Assembly: GCA_003649205.1 (NCBI GenBank)
Contig: QMRC01000001.1
Span: forward strand, 192,001-256,000
Direction: 5' to 3'
From: Thermoprotei archaeon
GTDB taxonomy: Archaea; Thermoproteota; Thermoprotei; Thermoproteales; B15-G16
DNA length: 64,000 nucleotides
This document shows, in pieces, positions 1-8,612 of this stretch. The position numbers were made by a program, and so were the translations under genes. Position 1 is the first letter of the stretch. Each line of letters begins with the position of its first letter. The notes beneath the pieces are model-generated. The model searched no databases, was not told where the DNA came from, and saw only the letters and a program-made list of their open reading frames with translations.

Positions 1-2
1 TC

Positions 3-860
3 GATAGGGTATTCTACCCAACAAAACCAGAGTTACAGGACTTAGTCATTAAGCTAGTTATTGAAGTTTTAGGTGGAACTGTACTCAAGCTACCTACGAA
101 TCTGTATAGGTTCGTGAAGTATGTAGTTGAGAGGCTACGTGTTAGAGGTAAGATCTTCTTAGTGATAATTGATGAAATAACTAGGTCACTAGATCAATAC
201 CGTGTATCGATTAGGGATTATGTTGCTAGTCTCAGCTTGAAGATATACGATATCTCAAATGAGTACAGCTGTACATTCTACCCAATACTCCTCACGAGTG
301 ATCAAACAGCTACAGAACTCTTTATAAGGGAGAGAGGTAAGAACCTAAGTACTCACCTACTATGGAACTTACCTAAAGAAGCACTCACTGAACTTCTTCA
401 ATTACTCAATTCACCACTTGACACTGCTGTAGTTTGGTACATTACTGGTGGAAATCCTAGAGAAGTTCTTCTACTAATGAGGGAGTATAGGTGGGAGTTG
501 ATACCCTACATAGATGCCAGGGTGAGGGATGTTGTATCTGTAATTGCTGAGTACATCCGAGATGTTGGTATCTCCATAGATGAGGTAATACATCAGTGTC
601 GAGTAGCAGTTGAGAATCCAGATTACTTAAGTTATCAGAGATTTTGGAATTACCTACTTAGGTACAACGTAGCTATGTACGTAGATGCTAGATTGCACAG
701 ACTATCAACTATTGATAGGTGTGAGTGGATTGGTGAGGATTGTGCATTTCAATTACCTATCTACTACTGGATACTGAGAGCTATCGTCGATAGGAGGAGA
801 TTGAGAGTAACAGCAAGAGATGTACTGGAGGTACTTAGATCACGTACTAACATCTTTTAA
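3..860 (+). CDS. Archaeal P-loop ATPase (Arch_ATPase-like), 5'-truncated by window edge
   Basis: Frame open from position 3 (DRVFYPTKPELQ...) into ORF 114..860; Walker B IIDE and TGGNPR motif. Confidence 0.7.
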   Translation, partial: DRVFYPTKPELQDLVIKLVIEVLGGTVLKLPTNLYRFVKYVVERLRVRGKIFLVIIDEITRSLDQYRVSIRDYVASLSLKIYDISNEYSCTFYPILLTSDQTATELFIRERGKNLSTHLLWNLPKEALTELLQLLNSPLDTAVVWYITGGNPREVLLLMREYRWELIPYIDARVRDVVSVIAEYIRDVGISIDEVIHQCRVAVENPDYLSYQRFWNYLLRYNVAMYVDARLHRLSTIDRCEWIGEDCAFQLPIYYWILRAIVDRRRLRVTARDVLEVLRSRTNIF

Positions 861-1665
861 ATACTACATTGATTGGGTGTAGAGCTGGTCTAAAGGTGGA
901 TTCTAGCTCTAGTGTTGGTCCTAGTACTTTGTAGAGTTTCCAGCCAACGTCTTCAGCTAGTTTAATCAGTTCATTAAGTGAGTAAGCACGTAGTTGGAAT
1001 GAGACCTCACCAAGGTACTTAAGGTCGTGATTTTGCTGCTTGTAAAATCTCCACGTATTGATGAATAAACCCCTCTCAGACCTGTAATCAGGGTACTCGA
1101 TAACGACTAGGTCATCGTAATGTGAAATAATACCCTCAACAGGTACTATATTCCTTATCAGCGATATAAAGTGTGGATTACTATGTTCAAGAATTAGTAG
1201 GTACCCACCTTCCTCAGTTAGTTCTAGACATTGCTTCAGTATTGATTTATCGGTTTCTTCATCGTAGTACCCAATTAACGTAGTCCAGATGAAGTACACT
1301 ACCTTGAAGGGTGCGTAATCACGTAGGTACTTCACTAGCTCTCTAGCATCACCAGCAATGAACTTAACTCTGTCTTCAAGACCTAGCTCTCTAGCTCTCT
1401 TAATACCATCCTCGATGAGGATAGGTGAGATATCTATACCATAGACCTCATACCCATACCTAGCGAGGTGTAGAGCAACTCTACCATTACCATAACCAAC
1501 TTCAAGCACCTTACCAGACTCAACACCAAGTGACTTCAGTAATCGAGCAATTGCCTCAGCACTCCTCCTACCTCTCTCCCACATTTGCCCTGAACTAACC
1601 ATCTTTAGGAATAGCTCACCATAGTCTATGAATAGCTTCTCAATCCAGTTACTCAGGCACTTCAC
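847..1665 (-). CDS. Class I SAM-dependent methyltransferase
   Basis: Motif I VLEVGYGNGR, GIDIS, GDAR. Confidence 0.85.
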   Translation of the reverse strand: MKCLSNWIEKLFIDYGELFLKMVSSGQMWERGRRSAEAIARLLKSLGVESGKVLEVGYGNGRVALHLARYGYEVYGIDISPILIEDGIKRARELGLEDRVKFIAGDARELVKYLRDYAPFKVVYFIWTTLIGYYDEETDKSILKQCLELTEEGGYLLILEHSNPHFISLIRNIVPVEGIISHYDDLVVIEYPDYRSERGLFINTWRFYKQQNHDLKYLGEVSFQLRAYSLNELIKLAEDVGWKLYKVLGPTLELESTFRPALHPINVVFKRC

Positions 1666-1669
1666 CTCA

Positions 1670-1909
1670 CTAGGTACCTGTTAAGAGGTCAAGCAATCTA
1701 ATACCTTCCTTGATACCATCAATAACTTCCTTGCTGTAGAACTCAGTGTACCCACAACGACAGCAGATAACAGCAACGTACTCGTAAGCTTGCCAGTCAA
1801 GTAATCTAGTTAGTCCTGCACCTGTGAAGGCATGTTCCTGTATCTTAAATTCAATTGAGCCACACTTAGGACAACGCCAACCGGAAAAGTACTGACTTAG
1901 CTCGACCAA
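1670..1909 (-). CDS. Zn-ribbon protein (DUF2082-like)
   Basis: CPKCG...CCRCGYTEFY pattern, 79 aa. Confidence 0.75.
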   Translation of the reverse strand: MVELSQYFSGWRCPKCGSIEFKIQEHAFTGAGLTRLLDWQAYEYVAVICCRCGYTEFYSKEVIDGIKEGIRLLDLLTGT

Positions 1910-1948: not shown

Positions 1949-2428
1949 CTATACCTTGTCTCTCCTCTTGTTGAGTATTTCTAAGAGTTTATCAATGTAG
2001 TGAGCAATTGTACTGTATACTCTGAGGTATGTAGTGATATCATGTCCAAAGGGATCCTCTATATCGTCGTCAATACCTGTGATGTACCCAATCAATGTCG
2101 TTACTGGTACATCAATTCCATGAATCTCACAGATGCACTTAACTTCATCAACTAGATTACGCTCCATGGTCAGCACTAAATCTGGTCTAAAGACCTTAAT
2201 TACATCACCTACGTACCTAGGTACGTGATCACTTAAATTCACACTAAATATCCTAGCCGCTTCAATAGCTTCATGCGGTATTCCATATCTGTACGGTACT
2301 GTACCTCCTGAGCTAGCTACATGAGGTAAATTGATATCTCTACACCTCTTATTGAAGTACCTCTCAGCAAAAGGACTCCTACACACATTACCGATACACA
2401 CAAAGACTATTCTCATGATTTCTCTCAA
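1949..2428 (-). CDS. Low-molecular-weight protein tyrosine phosphatase family protein
   Basis: VFVCIGNVCRS P-loop (C-x5-R) and DIEDPF general-acid motif. Confidence 0.85.
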   Translation of the reverse strand: MREIMRIVFVCIGNVCRSPFAERYFNKRCRDINLPHVASSGGTVPYRYGIPHEAIEAARIFSVNLSDHVPRYVGDVIKVFRPDLVLTMERNLVDEVKCICEIHGIDVPVTTLIGYITGIDDDIEDPFGHDITTYLRVYSTIAHYIDKLLEILNKRRDKV

Positions 2429-2663
2429 GTAATGTGGGTTATTTTAGAAATTCTCTTAGTTACATACCTATCCTCAAGTGATTAGAAGGTGATACAGCTG
2501 GCTTAGCTTAAATTGCGTGATCTCAAGTTGGAGTTGTACCATGACTACATCGTTATACCAAATTATGTAACTTGTCAATCTCGTTTAGAGAAGTTACTCG
2601 GGATAAGGAGCATACTTAGTGATTTGTACATGAAGGTTAATCGACGTACTTCCATATTGAGAT

Positions 2664-2682
2664 GAGAAAACGTTTATCTTTT
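2664..2682 (+). promoter_or_regulatory. Putative BRE/TATA of a leaderless operon 2706-4952
   Basis: gagaaaacg-TTTATCTTTT about 25-33 nt before ATG 2706; no RBS. Confidence 0.45.
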
Positions 2683-2705
2683 AGCTTGTTCTTCTTTCTC
2701 ACAGC

Positions 2706-3299
2706 ATGCTGTTACTCCTAAAGCTGACAGAGGAGGGCTACGTTCCAGTTCTATTCTCAAGAGAGGACGATCCTCTAGATGAGGAACGTGATCTAGAGTT
2801 ATTGACTTCCTTGACTGTAGCTGTGCTCGGTTTTGCATCAATACTATCACATGACACTGTTGAGCTCAGTACTGATACTGGTCAGAAGCTCTTTGTTGTA
2901 ACTTCTCAGAGCGGATACTGTTTAGCTATTTGGAGTGATAGCGAAATCAATAGGAATTTAGCTAGGGAGACATTACGTAAACTCGAGGAGCTGCATAAGA
3001 GTAGTAAACTTACGCCTCTTCACATGTGCGTTGCTGAGTCCCTACTACGTAGTAATTTACCTCCCGATGTTCTTGACTTTGTTGGGAGAGCTATTGACTT
3101 TGCTGAATCCGAGTTTAAGTATGCTCTTGACCTATCAGTCAATTTCACTGAGCTTCCAGATGACGTGAAGAAGAGAATGATTGCTATCCTCGAGAAGCTA
3201 CCTATGAAATTTGAGGAATTACTTCACTATGTTTCTGATAGGGATGTCCTTATGGGTATTCTCGAGTTAATTAAGTTAGGTATTCTCATAGTTAGGTGA
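2706..3299 (+). CDS. Hypothetical protein; probable longin/roadblock-like N-terminal domain plus C-terminal winged helix
   Basis: Hydrophobic pattern beta-beta-alpha-beta-beta-beta-alpha in residues 1-100; C-term MKFEELL...LMGILELIKLGILIV is wHTH-like. Confidence 0.55.
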   Translation: MLLLLKLTEEGYVPVLFSREDDPLDEERDLELLTSLTVAVLGFASILSHDTVELSTDTGQKLFVVTSQSGYCLAIWSDSEINRNLARETLRKLEELHKSSKLTPLHMCVAESLLRSNLPPDVLDFVGRAIDFAESEFKYALDLSVNFTELPDDVKKRMIAILEKLPMKFEELLHYVSDRDVLMGILELIKLGILIVR

Positions 3300-4321
3300 G
3301 CTTCATGTTGTGGATGCTCGAAGCGCTCAAAATTGCACGCAAGGTTGATGACTACGTACTGCACTGTGTTTGGGATGAACTCAATAAGCTTGGTATTGTT
3401 GATGAATTGAAGAGAGGTACTGAGCCTACGGTTATTGCCGATAAGTTTGGTCTCGATAGATCACTATTCTTGTCATTGTATAACGCTCTCACTCAAACAA
3501 GACTTATTAAAGCTATTTTAAAAGGTGTTAAGAAACCGAAACTTGGTCCTGAGTTTTCTAAATTTGAAACTGGTATGAGAATGCTTGTTAGAGCTTTCTT
3601 CATGAGGATGCAAGGTAAGGTTCCAGATGAAATGGAGATCTTTGATAGAAGGTTCTACATCTTGTCGTTTAAGTCTATACATGTAAATAGAGCTATTATC
3701 AGAGCAAAAGCGATAGGACTTAGAGGTCTTGGCTTTAAACCTAAAAACGGTGTTAAGCTTATTGAGCTTGGTGCTGGTTATGGCTCATTTACACTATCTA
3801 TCCTCAGTATGTTAGCTAGATACGGTGTGAGAGACTTCAAGCTAATATGCGTTGACATGAGTGAAGATATGGAAAAGGAATTCTATAAGACTGTGACATC
3901 TGAAATGTTAACGTCATTGAACATACCTGAAAAGTATCTTGAAAATATCGAGTATAAGATTGCTGATGTCTCAGAGCTTCCTAAGTTTGCCAACGACCTT
4001 GGTAAGGAATCCTTCGATTATGCTCTATCCTGCGCTCTTCAGCATTGGGTTAGGAATAGGCATGAGATGTATAGAGGTATTGCTACGTTACTTAAACCTG
4101 GTGCTATTTGGTTTGATGTAGGTTCTCTCTATACTGAGAAGGTTCCTTCACTAATGTCAGTACTTCTACTATTTACGAGGGATTATGCTGGTGCACTTAC
4201 TGAAGCTGATTTAGATGAAATTAGGAAACACCTTGTAGTTGAGAAGGTTAAGACAAGGAGAACTAAGACCTTTACATCAATTCACATCCGAGCCGCTAAG
4301 CCAGTGTACTTGGTGATGTAG
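3296..4321 (+). CDS. SAM-dependent methyltransferase with N-terminal HTH-like domain
   Basis: IELGAGYG motif I, ICVDMS, IADV, SFDYALS, LLKPGA; overlaps upstream stop (GTGA). Confidence 0.8.
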   Translation: MSFMLWMLEALKIARKVDDYVLHCVWDELNKLGIVDELKRGTEPTVIADKFGLDRSLFLSLYNALTQTRLIKAILKGVKKPKLGPEFSKFETGMRMLVRAFFMRMQGKVPDEMEIFDRRFYILSFKSIHVNRAIIRAKAIGLRGLGFKPKNGVKLIELGAGYGSFTLSILSMLARYGVRDFKLICVDMSEDMEKEFYKTVTSEMLTSLNIPEKYLENIEYKIADVSELPKFANDLGKESFDYALSCALQHWVRNRHEMYRGIATLLKPGAIWFDVGSLYTEKVPSLMSVLLLFTRDYAGALTEADLDEIRKHLVVEKVKTRRTKTFTSIHIRAAKPVYLVM

Positions 4322-4322
4322 G

Positions 4323-4952
4323 ATGAATATTGACATCAGGTCTCTCCTGGAGAGATTGAGGACTGTTAAAGTCATGGTAATTGGCCCCCCGTATGCAGGT
4401 AAGACTACATTACTGCAAGCTATCGATAGTAGGTGTAGGTGTATCACTACACAAGCAAATTCTCCAGCTCCGTACAGGAGTACAGTGTTTATTGATAGTA
4501 GCTGTATTGTTTTTGATTTGAATACCGGTAGGTGGTTCTCAAGTGGATCTGAGTTCAGTAATTACCTTCTGGAATCTCAAAGTGCTATTGACAATGCTGT
4601 GAAACGCTTTATCAAGGTTAAGTTCATAGGTACCCCAGGTCAGCGAAGATTTGAGTATCAACGTGATATACTGTTTAGTCTACATAAGGTAGTTGATGTT
4701 GTTGCTCTTGTCGTCGATTCTGCTTCTGAAAGTAGCATCAATGAGATTCCTAAGTTTCTTGACCTTGTTAAGGCTAAGTTGAGGTATAAGGCTCTGTTAC
4801 TAGTTGCTAATAAGCAGGATATACCTGGTGCATTGCCTGGTTCTGAAATTGCTAAGAGATTCGGTATTCAGGAATTTGTTGAGACTAGTGCTCTCCATGG
4901 TTGGGGTGTAGACAGATTTGTCAGGAAGTGCGTTGAGTTAGGACTTAGCTGA
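4323..4952 (+). CDS. Small GTPase (MglA/CvnD-like, Ras-like superfamily)
   Basis: G1 GPPYAGKT, G2 TVFID, G3 GTPGQ, G4 NKQD, G5 SAL. Confidence 0.88.
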   Translation: MNIDIRSLLERLRTVKVMVIGPPYAGKTTLLQAIDSRCRCITTQANSPAPYRSTVFIDSSCIVFDLNTGRWFSSGSEFSNYLLESQSAIDNAVKRFIKVKFIGTPGQRRFEYQRDILFSLHKVVDVVALVVDSASESSINEIPKFLDLVKAKLRYKALLLVANKQDIPGALPGSEIAKRFGIQEFVETSALHGWGVDRFVRKCVELGLS

Positions 4953-4999
4953 TCAAGGAATTACCTTAAGAATATTCCTGAAGAGGTACTAGGAAGCCT

Positions 5000-5025
5000 A
5001 AGAAAGAGAACGAAAATAGAGAAAG
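5000..5025 (-). terminator. Pyrimidine/T-rich terminator after rpl15e
   Basis: TTTCTCTATTTTCGTTCTCTTTCT on minus strand just past the stop codon. Confidence 0.4.
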
Positions 5026-5046
5026 CCTATGAGAGAACCCACCTCC

Positions 5047-5601
5047 TTACTTCTCCTTCCCCTCCCCCTCTTCACTCTTACCTTCTTTGCCAATTCGCCT
5101 CTCAGCCTCCTCAATAATCCTACGTACATCCACTTTATACCTCTTCCTCCTCTCGACACCATACAACCAGCTAAAGTCAGGATCACTCCTTATACATGGA
5201 TGTTCAGGATCGACAAGAATGACCTCGAAGTATTTATAATGACCGTCTTCACCTACCCAGTAGCTTCCAAGGACCTCCATGTTTGGGTACCTTCTTGCTG
5301 CTCTCTCCTCTGCTATTAGCTGTAGGCTTTTCTTTGCTGCATGGTAAATACCCATTCTCTTTGGTCTTCGACCTGAGTCAGGTCTTGGTTTCTCGAGTAG
5401 TCCTCTACGAACCTTTACTCTCACAACTATGATACCGGGCTTTGCCTTGTAGCCTAGTTGTCTAGCTTTGTCTAGTCTCGTTGGTTTTGGTATCCTAACT
5501 ACTGTTGGTTGCTTTCTCCACTGAACCATCCTTTGTTTGATGATTTCCCATATCCAGCTCTTTCTAGCTCTTCTCCAAGCTAACTTAATGTACTTGTACA
5601 C
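5047..5601 (-). CDS. rpl15e: 50S ribosomal protein eL15
   Basis: [30 protein letters not shown]-type motifs; GGTGA RBS. Confidence 0.97.
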
Positions 5602-7583: not shown

Positions 7584-8612
7584 TTGATCACTATGAGGCG
7601 TGTAGTTAAGGTTGATGGTGATCTTCCGCTTATTGGTTGTATAGCGTTTGGGATAATTGATCGTGGTACCAACCTACTTCAGATTAGGGTTACTACGTTA
7701 TGTCCCTACAACTGTATCTACTGCTCGGTTGATGCTGGACCTCACTCACGTACTAGACAGACTGAGTACGTGATTACTGATGTTGACTATCTAGTTGAGA
7801 CCTTGAGGCAGGTAATTGAGTATAAGGGTGTTAAGCATGTTGAAGCTCACTTAGATGGTGTTGGTGAAGTTATGACCTATGACAAGATTGTTGAGTTAGT
7901 TCAGAAATTGAGTGAGATTCCTCAGATCAAGGTAATTTCGATGCAGACTAGGGGCTATAGATTCACCTATCATATCCTCGATGAGTTAGCTGATGCAGGT
8001 TTGAGTAGGGTCAATTTATCGATTGATGCTTTGGATTCTGACTTAGCTAAGTACATGGCTGGTGTTGACTGGTACAATGTTGAGGAGGTTATCAACTATG
8101 CTGAGTACATTGTGCGTTCAACTAAGATGGATCTTCTGATAGCTCCTGTTTGGGTTCCTGGTATTAATGATCGTGAGATACCTAGATTGATTGAGTGGGC
8201 TAAGAGAATTGGTGCCGGTAAGAGGTGGCCTCCTCTTGGTATTCAGAAGTTTGTTGTTCATAAGAGAGGTAGGAAGCCTAGAGGTGTTAGGGAGATGAGG
8301 TGGAGTGAGTTCTATAGGTGGTTGAGGAAGTGGGAGAAGGAGTTTGGTATTAAGTTGGTGCTCTCTCCTGAGGATTTTCAGATATTTAAGACTAGGTCGC
8401 TACCAACTAGGTTTAGAGTTGGTGAGAGAATTTGGGTTAAGGTCGTTGAGTGGGGGTGGCAGAAGGGTGAGTTACTTGGTGTTTGTGGTGATAGATTAGT
8501 AACTATTGTTGGTGTTCGTAGCGATGAGGGGGAGTATCTTCTTGGTAAAGTTGTTAGGGTTGAGGTTATCGAGAATAAGCACAACATATACCTAGCTAGG
8601 TTACATCTATAG
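7584..8612 (+). CDS. Radical SAM protein with C-terminal TRAM domain (COG2100-like)
   Basis: CPYNCIYC motif; GIIDRGTN; C-terminal beta-rich TRAM-like domain. Confidence 0.85.
   Translation: MITMRRVVKVDGDLPLIGCIAFGIIDRGTNLLQIRVTTLCPYNCIYCSVDAGPHSRTRQTEYVITDVDYLVETLRQVIEYKGVKHVEAHLDGVGEVMTYDKIVELVQKLSEIPQIKVISMQTRGYRFTYHILDELADAGLSRVNLSIDALDSDLAKYMAGVDWYNVEEVINYAEYIVRSTKMDLLIAPVWVPGINDREIPRLIEWAKRIGAGKRWPPLGIQKFVVHKRGRKPRGVREMRWSEFYRWLRKWEKEFGIKLVLSPEDFQIFKTRSLPTRFRVGERIWVKVVEWGWQKGELLGVCGDRLVTIVGVRSDEGEYLLGKVVRVEVIENKHNIYLARLHL

Follow-up and report, generated by a model that had tools for sequence, protein, structure and literature searches.

A candidate small-GTPase module in Thermoprotei that combines an MglA-type GTPase, a predicted longin-fold partner and a class I methyltransferase

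We describe a three-gene cassette encoded in a 64,000-nucleotide stretch of Thermoprotei archaeon DNA (the whole of which is hereafter called the window) that, in our estimate somewhat above an even chance, constitutes a lineage-restricted three-component small-GTPase module, with the GTPase (G) as the switch, a longin-like protein (X) as its regulator or adaptor, and a methyltransferase (MT) as the most likely output. The genes, their motifs and predicted folds, their repeated co-occurrence and the purifying selection that acts on them make up the established part of this case. MglA-type small GTPases are widespread in prokaryotes, and, except in Myxococcus and the actinobacterial conservons, little is known of their regulators and outputs. 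The cassette provides a matched set of a GTPase, a predicted direct partner from a new sequence family and an enzyme, and a paralogous set in the same genome is usable as a specificity control.

The cassette as observed is genuine: the ORF list agrees with the preliminary description in the position and strand of all three genes (Table 1), and the tight coupling noted there is confirmed at both junctions, in that 4 nt are shared between the end of X and the GTG start of MT and a single nucleotide separates the MT stop from the ATG of G. The overlap depends on the GTG start; the public MT protein (P0011) is 335 aa long and begins at ATG 3314, six codons downstream, so that a 14-nt gap after X replaces the overlap and the spacing is still tight. 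The hexamer TTTATC at 2673-2678, 33 nt 5' of the ATG of X, is a plausible candidate for a promoter element of the cassette (sigma-70 promoter scanners are not applicable to archaea), and it is unchanged among strain variants of this region, which fall at 2671, 2690 and 2689/2692. Purifying selection acts on the cassette genes: comparison with an independent vent metagenome (run X2) gives 29 synonymous and 8 nonsynonymous changes among the 37 listed coding differences, counts that rest on the 40 of 108 differences that were listed. The strain contigs (runs X2-X4) are too short to span the gene junctions and are thus uninformative on gene order. Third codon positions are indeed richer in T (0.40 in X, 0.395 in MT and 0.46 in G) than those of most flanking genes (0.22-0.36), as had been judged by eye; the lateral acquisition that this was taken to hint at is rejected, because the genome itself spans such values (81st-93rd percentile of 1609 crude ORFs; mean 0.314, sd 0.101) and the codon-usage distance of the trio is ordinary (36th-57th percentile).

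Table 1. Features of the cassette (nucleotide positions within the window)
Feature	Residues	Position	Strand	Remarks and basis
Promoter-like stretch		2662..2684	+	A-rich BRE-like run, then TATA-like TTTATC; read directly
Gene X	197 aa	2706-3299	+	ATG start; ORF list
X longin-topology domain	1-118	2706-3059	+	AF2 model
X E27-R28	27-28	2784..2789	+	N-terminal end of helix 1; alignments and X-G contact list
X winged-helix-like C-terminal domain	~119-197	3060-3296	+	AF2 model
Gene MT	341 aa	3296-4321	+	GTG start; ORF list
MT N-terminal helical/HTH-like domain	1-145		+	AF2/Foldseek
MT class I SAM methyltransferase domain	~146-335		+	Pfam over aa 146-272, AF2
MT motif I ELGAGYG	157-163	3764..3784	+	SAM-binding; alignment and direct read
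MT acidic residue D187	187	within 3848-3865	+	End of strand after motif I
MT invariant H250-W251	250-251	within 4040-4048	+	Alignment
Gene G	209 aa	4323-4952	+	ATG start; ORF list
G1 GPPYAGKT	21-28	4383-4406	+	Alignment and direct read
G2 T54	54	within 4479-4490	+	Alignment and direct read
G insertion, about 35 aa between beta2 and beta3	62-98	4506..4616	+	10-row GTPase alignment
G3 GTPGQ	103-107	4629-4643	+	Gly instead of usual Asp
G4 NKQD	163-166	4809-4820	+	Alignment and direct read
G5 TSAL	188-191	4884-4895	+	Alignment and direct read

Judging from its sequence, G is a small Ras-superfamily GTPase of the MglA groups 2-5 kind, with Pfam matches to Arf (4.6e-10) and Ras (7.8e-8). The motifs G1-G5, like motif I of MT, are all intact, as stated in the preliminary description, and its assignment of G to the MglA/CvnD type is borne out by the GTPGQ form of G3, in which all 10 aligned GTPases share G103, T104, P105 and G106. 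According to Wuichet and Sogaard-Andersen 2014 (PMC4316618), GTPases of MglA groups 2-5 possess GTPGQ, not DxxGQ or TVPGQ, at G3 and a threonine, not an intrinsic arginine, beside the G2 threonine, and their roadblock partners have no conserved arginine. This arginine is likewise absent from the window G, but the residue that replaces it is serine (S53-T54), not threonine; A-T stands at this position in the paralogue and T-T in the seven other relatives. The beta2-beta3 insertion is present in the window G and in the GTPases of loci L003, L004 and L017, that is, in the three GTPases that neighbor an X-family gene and in one other, and is absent from 6 of the 10 rows.

X appears, from its structural model, to represent a new sequence family whose fold is of the longin type, followed by a winged-helix-like tail, which agrees with its earlier description as a longin-like/wHTH protein. 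Sequence searches with X gave no match in Pfam (DUF742 included), in NCBIfam or, to E ≤ 10, in the PDB; none of the six X-family members matches the Pfam longin or Robl_LC7 models at E ≤ 10, and no sequence link to neighboring roadblock proteins was found (hhalign probability 0.1%). The family comprises five members among 1.84 billion (1.84e9) representatives, and E27-R28 is kept in all five full-length members, the sixth alignment row, P0010, being without this region. The AF2 model (pLDDT 83.2, pTM 0.78), built on a 6-row alignment from which two of the five AF2 models reached only pLDDT 62-63, has DSSP elements E2-8, E11-17, H23-47, E53-57, E62-68, E71-77, H83-98 and H104-116. This order of beta-beta-alpha-beta-beta-beta-alpha-alpha, with no N-terminal helix, corresponds in the model to the longin topology as defined in PMC10933270. 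In Foldseek searches, 45 of the 46 matches listed are longin/roadblock-fold proteins, with probabilities up to 1.00, including Ykt6, Sec22b, a TRAPP-core chain, Mon1-Ccz1, GATOR1 chain C, Ragulator and a Lokiarchaeal Roadblock-Longin protein. Ykt6, Sec22b and the TRAPP-core chain 7b6d_E match with probability 0.99-1.00 and TM by target of 0.46-0.51 over 101-109 columns, at E of only 7e-3 to 1.3e-2; across the whole search no match reached E ≤ 0.001, the best E being 4e-3, with target-normalised TM of about 0.45-0.5 over ~100-110 columns.

A direct interaction of X with G is predicted by complex modelling. The X-G prediction scores 0.80 overall (0.80, 0.80 and 0.81 in three runs, as against 0.00 for the best of 3 controls), a value that expresses the confidence of the model and may in part stem from longin-GTPase geometry that it has learned; 58 of 80 solved complexes score at least this high, as do 2 of 110 mismatched pairs, counts that hold only roughly for X-G because analyst-built alignments went in. 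The runs have at least 80% of contacts in common, with partner pLDDT of at least 84, and place helix 1 of X, with E27-R28, on the switch face of G. The predicted interface involves X residues 22-39 and 56-60 and G residues 37-43, 55-63, 72-78, 98-102 and 112-120, so that residues 72-78 of the G insertion are among the contacts. These models support the earlier proposal that the first gene encodes a partner of the GTPase, and in their light X is most likely a cognate regulator or adaptor of G. Of the predicted contacts to G, those of the conserved R28, at the start of helix 1, have the lowest error; since these are with switch I and strand beta2, not with the P-loop or Q107, a role as an arginine finger is not indicated.

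On the evidence of motif I, D187, Pfam matches and model fold, MT is a class I SAM-dependent methyltransferase. Methyltransf_11/12/25/31 all match over aa 146-272, Methyltransf_11 and Methyltransf_25 above the Pfam cut-offs, and the Rossmann-like methyltransferase fold is confirmed by the AF2 model (pLDDT 86.8) and by its Foldseek matches, of which at least 500 have E ≤ 0.001. Small-molecule C/O-methyltransferases that carry a helical or winged-helix lid at the N terminus are the nearest neighbors of the predicted fold among the matches listed; examples are CurJ, AprA (C-MT; MT2), PsoF, DsyB, MmcR, PhzM, Rv2258c and ASMT, and in these the N-terminal domain serves as a lid or dimerisation module. 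MT resembles these enzymes in its two-domain fold (E 1e-11 to 1e-8 and TMq 0.39-0.61 among the matches listed) and in the presence of motif I and the acidic ribose-binding residue, and differs from them in that its identity to them is 11-17% and its Pfam matches are to generic methyltransferase models, not to an O-methyltransferase family. To our knowledge, no enzyme of these types is encoded together with a GTPase.

The trio recurs as a unit. A second cassette in the same genome, on contig C4, contains all three paralogues in the order MT-X-G, with identities to the window proteins of 27-28% for X, 29% for MT (E 1e-35) and 58% for G (53% by BLASTP), and a cassette of the C4 type is also kept in a congener. 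Furthermore, X and MT are convergent on a metagenome contig whose MT is 36% identical to that of the window. Contig searches with the X relative P0009 recovered one 1565-base metagenome contig and none among the genome contigs, and those with P0010 no locus among the genome contigs; altogether, the module was found in one genus and in two metagenomic X relatives only. The paralogous MT of C4 has, in both species, a degenerate motif I (the middle Gly is replaced by Pro) and no acidic residue at the aligned position, so that catalysis may be non-essential to the module; the paralogue alone matches a methyltransferase dimerisation-domain Pfam model, at E 0.1.

In other families of the class, related GTPases adjoin Roadblock/LC7 genes, and finding a regulator of the roadblock/longin class beside the GTPase thus accords with expectation. 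No roadblock-like ORF is present in or beside 2400-5050 of the window. The idea that a longin protein takes the place of a roadblock GAP fails for the C4 cassette, which also adjoins a 146-aa roadblock-fold gene, an assignment made from the Atlas structure search alone. This gene has no sequence link to the neighboring roadblock proteins; its only homologue lies at C4 itself, and the sole Pfam Robl_LC7 match in the genome is on C6.

Comparison with known systems shows both parallels and departures. The cassette resembles MglA-MglB, as described for MglA groups 2-5 in PMC4316618, in that G has GTPGQ, a canonical NKxD and no arginine beside the G2 threonine, in that the GTPase gene is accompanied by one for a regulator of the roadblock/longin fold class and, at the paralogous cassette, in the roadblock-fold neighbor. 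It differs in that no roadblock gene is found at the window cassette, in that X has a longin, not a roadblock, topology with a winged-helix-like tail and, in the predicted complex, makes its contacts with helix 1 and strand 3, and in that a methyltransferase belongs to the window set; the word does not occur in the main text of PMC4316618, whose supplementary neighborhood tables may bear on this point. The conservons (CvnA kinase, CvnB roadblock, CvnC/DUF742 and CvnD; Mfp in mycobacteria) likewise combine a GTPGQ-type GTPase with partners in one operon, one of them of the roadblock/longin fold. Another, CvnC/MfpC, is described in PMC11343762 as a small protein acting as a GEF, and X could merge the CvnB-like and CvnC-like roles in one chain. 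However, the conservon GTPases have NxFD at G4 (PMC4316618) where the window G has NKQD, the window cassette includes a methyltransferase, and no match to the histidine kinase, roadblock or DUF742 parts was found in the cassette or the neighboring ORFs. With the longin GTPase regulators of eukaryotes and Asgard archaea (NPRL2/NPRL3, FLCN, SMCR8, Mon1-Ccz1 and the TRAPP core) X shares Foldseek matches, predicted contact with the switch regions of a GTPase and, as in NPRL2/3, a longin domain followed by a small C-terminal domain. X differs from them in the lack of sequence similarity and in that its partner is MglA-type, not Rag, Rab or Arf. The longin GAP subfamily (FLCN, SMCR8 and NPRL2) is characterized by a GP motif in the beta1-beta2 loop with a neighboring arginine finger (PMC12290439), whereas X has no GP motif between strands 1 and 2, a region that is unconserved across its family.

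A literature search recovered no report of such longin regulators from the phylum of the host, nor of a small GTPase, a longin/roadblock partner and a methyltransferase in one archaeal operon (the neighborhood tables of PMC4316618 were outside the search). No description of the combination of a bacterial-type GTPase switch, a protein shaped like a eukaryotic regulator and a methyltransferase was found, and the distribution of the module is narrow. The layout of X is otherwise discussed for eukaryotes and Asgard archaea, and the known range of this type of regulator will widen if the fold holds experimentally in the present lineage.

In the mechanism that we favor, G would act as an MglA-family GTPGQ switch with no intrinsic arginine finger, and helix 1 (E27-R28) and strand 3 of X would dock on switch I, the interswitch strands, the insertion and switch II of G. 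Given such docking on the switch regions, X would read or set the nucleotide state of G and could be a GAP, a GEF or an adaptor for the GTP state. MT, a putative third obligate partner and a class I SAM enzyme apparently built like the small-molecule C/O-methyltransferases, would most likely be the output, with the G-X complex controlling its activity or location. All roles assigned to MT here are inferences, as is the direction of regulation. The recurrent link to a methyltransferase suggests a tie between GTPase switching and either methylation or SAM status, and a role of MT as a SAM-sensing input fits the data as well as that of an effector or writer.

A specific version of the input role, which we rate as unlikely though the best placed of the alternatives, posits that SAM occupancy determines the binding of MT to X, or its release, and that X then sets G, by analogy with SAMTOR, which acts upstream of the Rag GTPases on GATOR1, a complex that contains longin domains. 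The SAM-binding motif is kept in MT, and the degenerate motif I of its paralogue would suit a possible non-catalytic partner. Moreover, chain C of the KICSTOR-GATOR1 and KICSTOR-GATOR1-SAMTOR entries ranks among the best whole-length Foldseek matches of X, SAMTOR is described as binding GATOR1-KICSTOR only when SAM is absent (PMC10212514), and the architecture of NPRL2/3 has been reported in Asgard archaea (10.1101/2020.10.19.343400). However, GATOR1 superimposes poorly on X (rmsd 13-15 Å, TMq 0.26-0.32), SAMTOR is absent among the 40 MT neighbors listed, which are catalytic small-molecule methyltransferases with a substrate lid, and the analogy comes from folds, homology not being established.

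Conceivably, X and G constitute a pair of regulator and GTPase, and MT, an unrelated small-molecule methyltransferase, is only carried on the same transcript. The tie between MT and G consists in gene linkage alone, and the fold neighbors of MT are ordinary natural-product or metabolite methyltransferases. We nonetheless give this arrangement only a small chance, given that MT accompanies X in three different orders (X-MT-G, MT-X-G and X/MT convergent) and that the MT family (E ≤ 1e-6) occurs in only 1 of 401 genomes sampled from the phylum, there exclusively at both cassettes. A more far-reaching proposal, and a clearly doubtful one, is that the cassette is a prokaryotic counterpart, outside Asgard archaea, of eukaryotic SAMTOR-GATOR1-Rag nutrient sensing, in which methyl-donor status would be coupled to a GTPase switch through X as an NPRL-like longin/winged-helix regulator and MT as a SAM-binding methyltransferase-fold protein.

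The winged-helix-like tail raises the question of whether X is a transcription factor that binds DNA through this domain and whose longin domain would allow G to turn this binding on or off, with MT as a co-regulated target. The C-terminal order of helix-strand-helix-helix-strand in the AF2 model and a weak Pfam match to the small winged-helix-type protein Sp-CxC (E 0.056) would be compatible with such a function. It is made quite improbable by the composition of the helix in the recognition position, in which, throughout the six members, basic residues number 0-2 and acidic ones 2-3, by the pI of 4.7-6.5 of the C-terminal part (aa 119-197), and by the finding that none of the six members matches a Pfam DNA-binding HTH model at E ≤ 10. 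Least probable of all is that MT methylates G or X as a protein methyltransferase in an adaptation-type feedback like that of CheR on chemoreceptors: tight translational coupling with X and G and weak PDB profile matches to rickettsial protein lysine methyltransferases (E 0.011-0.04) speak for it, but the best structural neighbors of MT are small-molecule C/O-methyltransferases and no known protein-methyltransferase family passes for MT in Pfam or NCBIfam. Taken as a whole, the preliminary interpretation of the cassette as a GTP-switched methylation circuit is partly supported.

Several further candidates were considered. In another family of the class (L013/L014), a GTPGQ GTPase is convergent with proteins of 266 aa and 270 aa, and the link of this locus to the trio is unsupported (methyltransferase BLASTP E 1.2; hhalign 15%, 4% and 0.3%; ESM Atlas scores of only 0.85; nothing relevant by PDB profile search). 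The 270-aa protein carries a methyltransferase-like glycine motif. An LMW phosphatase gene, divergent from X in the window, was dismissed as a fourth component, being absent at the paralogous locus. Assignment to a defense system was likewise rejected: PADLOC detects generic methyltransferase and P-loop similarity alone, with mad2 matching MT at 6e-12 and mad8 matching G at 2.7e-4, and an unrelated neighboring methyltransferase matches mad2 better, at 1e-20.

We propose that the three genes X, MT and G (see table) form a GTPase cassette in which G would be an MglA-type switch, X its cognate longin-type regulator or adaptor, and MT a third component tied to them in function and most likely serving as the output, a reading that we rate as somewhat better than an even bet. 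ORF listing places the three frames exactly where the preliminary description had them, and the single TATA-like box that it noted before the trio reads as TTTATC, 33 nt 5′ of the X start behind an A-rich run, a candidate promoter. The tight junctions reported there are likewise read from the sequence, a 4-nt overlap for X/MT and a 1-nt gap for MT/G; however, the overlap could instead be a 14-nt gap, because the public gene call for MT (P0011, 335 aa) starts at ATG 3314. Other-frame and antisense ORFs inside the cassette region reach just 54–60 aa. Furthermore, short contigs from an independent hydrothermal-vent metagenome (run X2) carry a variant cassette in which ~2–9% of letters differ (4–35 per 135–408-base piece). 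Among the 40 of 108 differences listed, 29 of 37 coding differences are synonymous and 8 are not (synonymous/non-synonymous: X 9/1, MT 2/0, G 18/7), an excess indicating that all three frames are real, constrained genes.

Genes of the cassette and its upstream neighbours in the window
Gene	Position	Strand	Product or match
X	2706-3299	+	197 aa ORF
MT	3296-4321	+	341 aa ORF, GTG start
G	4323-4952	+	209 aa ORF
LMW phosphotyrosine phosphatase	1949-2428	-	Pfam LMWPc 4.9e-19
Second, unrelated class I methyltransferase (272 aa), then DUF2082 zinc-ribbon protein (79 aa)	847-1909	-	

With respect to the GTPase, which had been described as intact and of the MglA/CvnD kind, all five motifs are present (G1 GPPYAGKT, G2 T54, G3 GTPGQ, G4 NKQD, G5 TSAL). 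G matches Pfam Arf (4.6e-10) and Ras (7.8e-8), and a profile of ten GTPases (G and relatives) retrieves Arf/Arl chains (~1e-18) and MglA (1e-15) from the PDB. GTPGQ is common to MglA groups 2–5, in which the intrinsic arginine seen in group 1 is missing and whose MglB partners have no conserved arginine (Wuichet and Sogaard-Andersen, PMC4316618); judged by its motifs, G fits this description. A beta2-beta3 insertion of ~35 residues is present in G, its paralogue and the paralogue's orthologue, and absent from 6 of the 10 aligned GTPases. A similar insertion occurs in a GTPGQ GTPase at another locus (L017 3361-5548), where the gene overlaps by 23 nt that of a 535-aa, apparently coiled-coil protein without a Pfam match, which may be another non-roadblock partner type. 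Weakly related GTPases (28–30% identity) from other families of the same class adjoin Pfam Roadblock/LC7 genes (4.6e-10, 5e-9 and 1.2e-3 for three of the GTPase neighbours tested), which is the canonical layout. Loci L015 2505-4535 and L019 1339-2127 encode coiled-coil proteins with a membrane anchor and a C-terminal roadblock or roadblock-like domain. At L015 the gene for this protein is followed immediately by a roadblock gene and a GTPGQ GTPase gene; its counterpart in the window genome is a 262-aa membrane-anchored coiled-coil protein on contig C6, the sole Pfam Robl_LC7 match in that genome, and none of the ORFs at that locus encodes a GTPase.

Complex prediction supports binding of X to G, the pair in which gene 1 had been suggested to regulate the GTPase: the score is 0.80 (0.80, 0.80 and 0.81 in three runs) versus 0.00 for the best of three controls, a mark that 58 of 80 solved complexes attain, as against 2 of 110 mismatched pairs, counts that are rough here given custom alignments. 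At least 80% of contacts agree among the runs, with a partner pLDDT of at least 84. The predicted interface comprises residues 22-39 (helix 1, including E27-R28) and 56-60 of X, and 37-43, 55-63, 72-78 (the insertion), 98-102 and 112-120 of G, that is, its switch I, interswitch strands and switch II. The score may be owed in part to learned longin-GTPase geometry.

As for MT, Pfam Methyltransf_11/12/25/31 match residues 146-272, and motif I, the acidic residue after it and the invariant His-Trp are all in place. Thus, of the proposed HTH-methyltransferase, the intact SAM motif stands, but the simplest reading of the 'HTH' is as this enzyme class's lid or dimerisation domain, because the solved folds closest to the AF2 model (pLDDT 86.8) by Foldseek are small-molecule methyltransferases of two domains, the N-terminal one a helical or winged-helix lid (E 1e-11 to 1e-8; among them CurJ, AprA MT2, DszA, PsoF with TMq 0.61, the citrinin PKS C-MT domain, DsyB, Fur6, MmcR, PhzM, Rv2258c and ASMT). 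The family is narrow: a word-indexed search recovered MT alone, and in a sample of 401 genomes from the phylum the MT profile matches one, there at two cassettes.

The second of these, on contig C4 of the same genome, encodes MT (394 aa), X (215 aa) and G (197 aa) in that order, with a 4-nt X/G overlap, and is retained in a congener, so that the trio recurs. Identity between the two cassettes is 27% for X, 29% for MT (E 1e-35) and 58% for G (53% by BLASTP). Motif I of the paralogous MT is degenerate in both species. By analogy with SAMTOR and GATOR1, MT could be a SAM sensor working through X, which we consider unlikely but worth keeping in mind. On a 1565-base metagenome contig, the gene for the X relative P0009 is convergent with that of an MT relative 36% identical to the window MT. 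Thus, X and MT travel together in three gene orders (window, C4-type and metagenome contig), and G is present in both cases with enough DNA around them; that MT is an unrelated passenger seems to us improbable. A third X paralogue (~26% identical to both other X types) lies at a congener contig end (L002 257-847), the contig stopping 256 nt beyond it; a 374-aa gene without annotation precedes it on the same strand. Convergent with the C4 cassette is a 146-aa gene, single-copy in the genome, whose Atlas model matches a Robl_LC7 cluster (TM 0.67/0.79, within the naming threshold). Two genomes of another family of the class (L013 3385-5585, L014 1454-3572) have a GTPGQ GTPase convergent with a 266-aa protein (cysteine-rich N-terminus, X-like tail), whose gene is overlapped by that of a 270-aa protein with a methyltransferase-like glycine motif; we do not count these as further trios, the likeness being one of layout, with homology to X and MT not established.

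X itself has no sequence match in Pfam, NCBIfam or the PDB, and none of the six family members matches longin, roadblock or HTH families even at E <= 10. A word-indexed search returned only X among 357 candidates, and screening 1.84 billion representatives with a profile gave five proteins, three from the window genome and congener plus the metagenomic P0009 and P0010. The AlphaFold2 model (six-row alignment; mean pLDDT 83.2, pTM 0.78; two of five models reach just 62-63) supports the longin-like and wHTH assignment. Its predicted order, beta-beta-alpha-beta-beta-beta-alpha-alpha, agrees with the definition of longin topology in PMC10933270, and a winged-helix-like helix-strand-helix-helix-strand tail follows. 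No Foldseek match in the PDB has E <= 0.001; longin/roadblock-fold proteins make up 45 of the 46 matches listed, with probabilities up to 1.00 (among them Ykt6, Sec22b, a TRAPP-core chain, Mon1-Ccz1, GATOR1 chain C, Ragulator, Fuzzy-Inturned, adaptor small subunits and a Lokiarchaeal Roadblock-Longin protein). The tail might suggest that X is a DNA-binding factor, but its recognition-position helix is hydrophobic or acidic in all family members, so we read it as a probable protein-binding module and regard DNA binding as very unlikely. A protein methyltransferase with G or X as target is the least probable role for MT.

The nearest known systems are MglA-MglB modules and actinobacterial conservons, the latter combining a GTPGQ GTPase with a roadblock protein and with a small DUF742 protein that has GEF activity (PMC11343762). 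In contrast, the cassette has a partner of predicted longin topology with a winged-helix-like tail, lacks a histidine kinase among the neighbouring ORFs and constantly includes a methyltransferase. The modelled layout of X, in which a small C-terminal domain follows a longin, is shared with NPRL2/3 and is reported in Asgard archaea (preprint 10.1101/2020.10.19.343400). In sequence, neither X nor MT has a detectable relative in Asgard archaea. Our literature search found no account of a GTPase, longin partner and methyltransferase combined. The cassette is narrowly distributed and offers a clean, testable partner set.

Third-position T is raised, as had been judged by eye (X 0.40, MT 0.395, G 0.46), but the lateral acquisition read from it is rejected: the values fall at the 81st-93rd percentile of a wide genome spread (mean 0.314, sd 0.101) and codon usage is ordinary. 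Many genome patches have one strongly A-poor strand (A ~0.10, T ~0.45, more G than C; the threshold is passed by 87 windows of 600 nt), among them contig C4 24.7-26.2 kb (L004 2155-3528), ~40 other places and, in part, window 7584-8612, a radical-SAM-like gene (T3 0.458, A3 0.122, GC skew ~0.4). Such patchiness would account for the spread. The paralogous C4 MT gene is itself such a patch (sense strand 12.6% A versus 22% in the congener's orthologue), and its antisense strand is therefore free of stop codons.

A 277-nt spacer separates the phosphatase gene from the divergently oriented X; being missing at the paralogous cassette, the phosphatase gene is probably a local neighbour, and the methyltransferase–DUF2082 pair lies just upstream of it.
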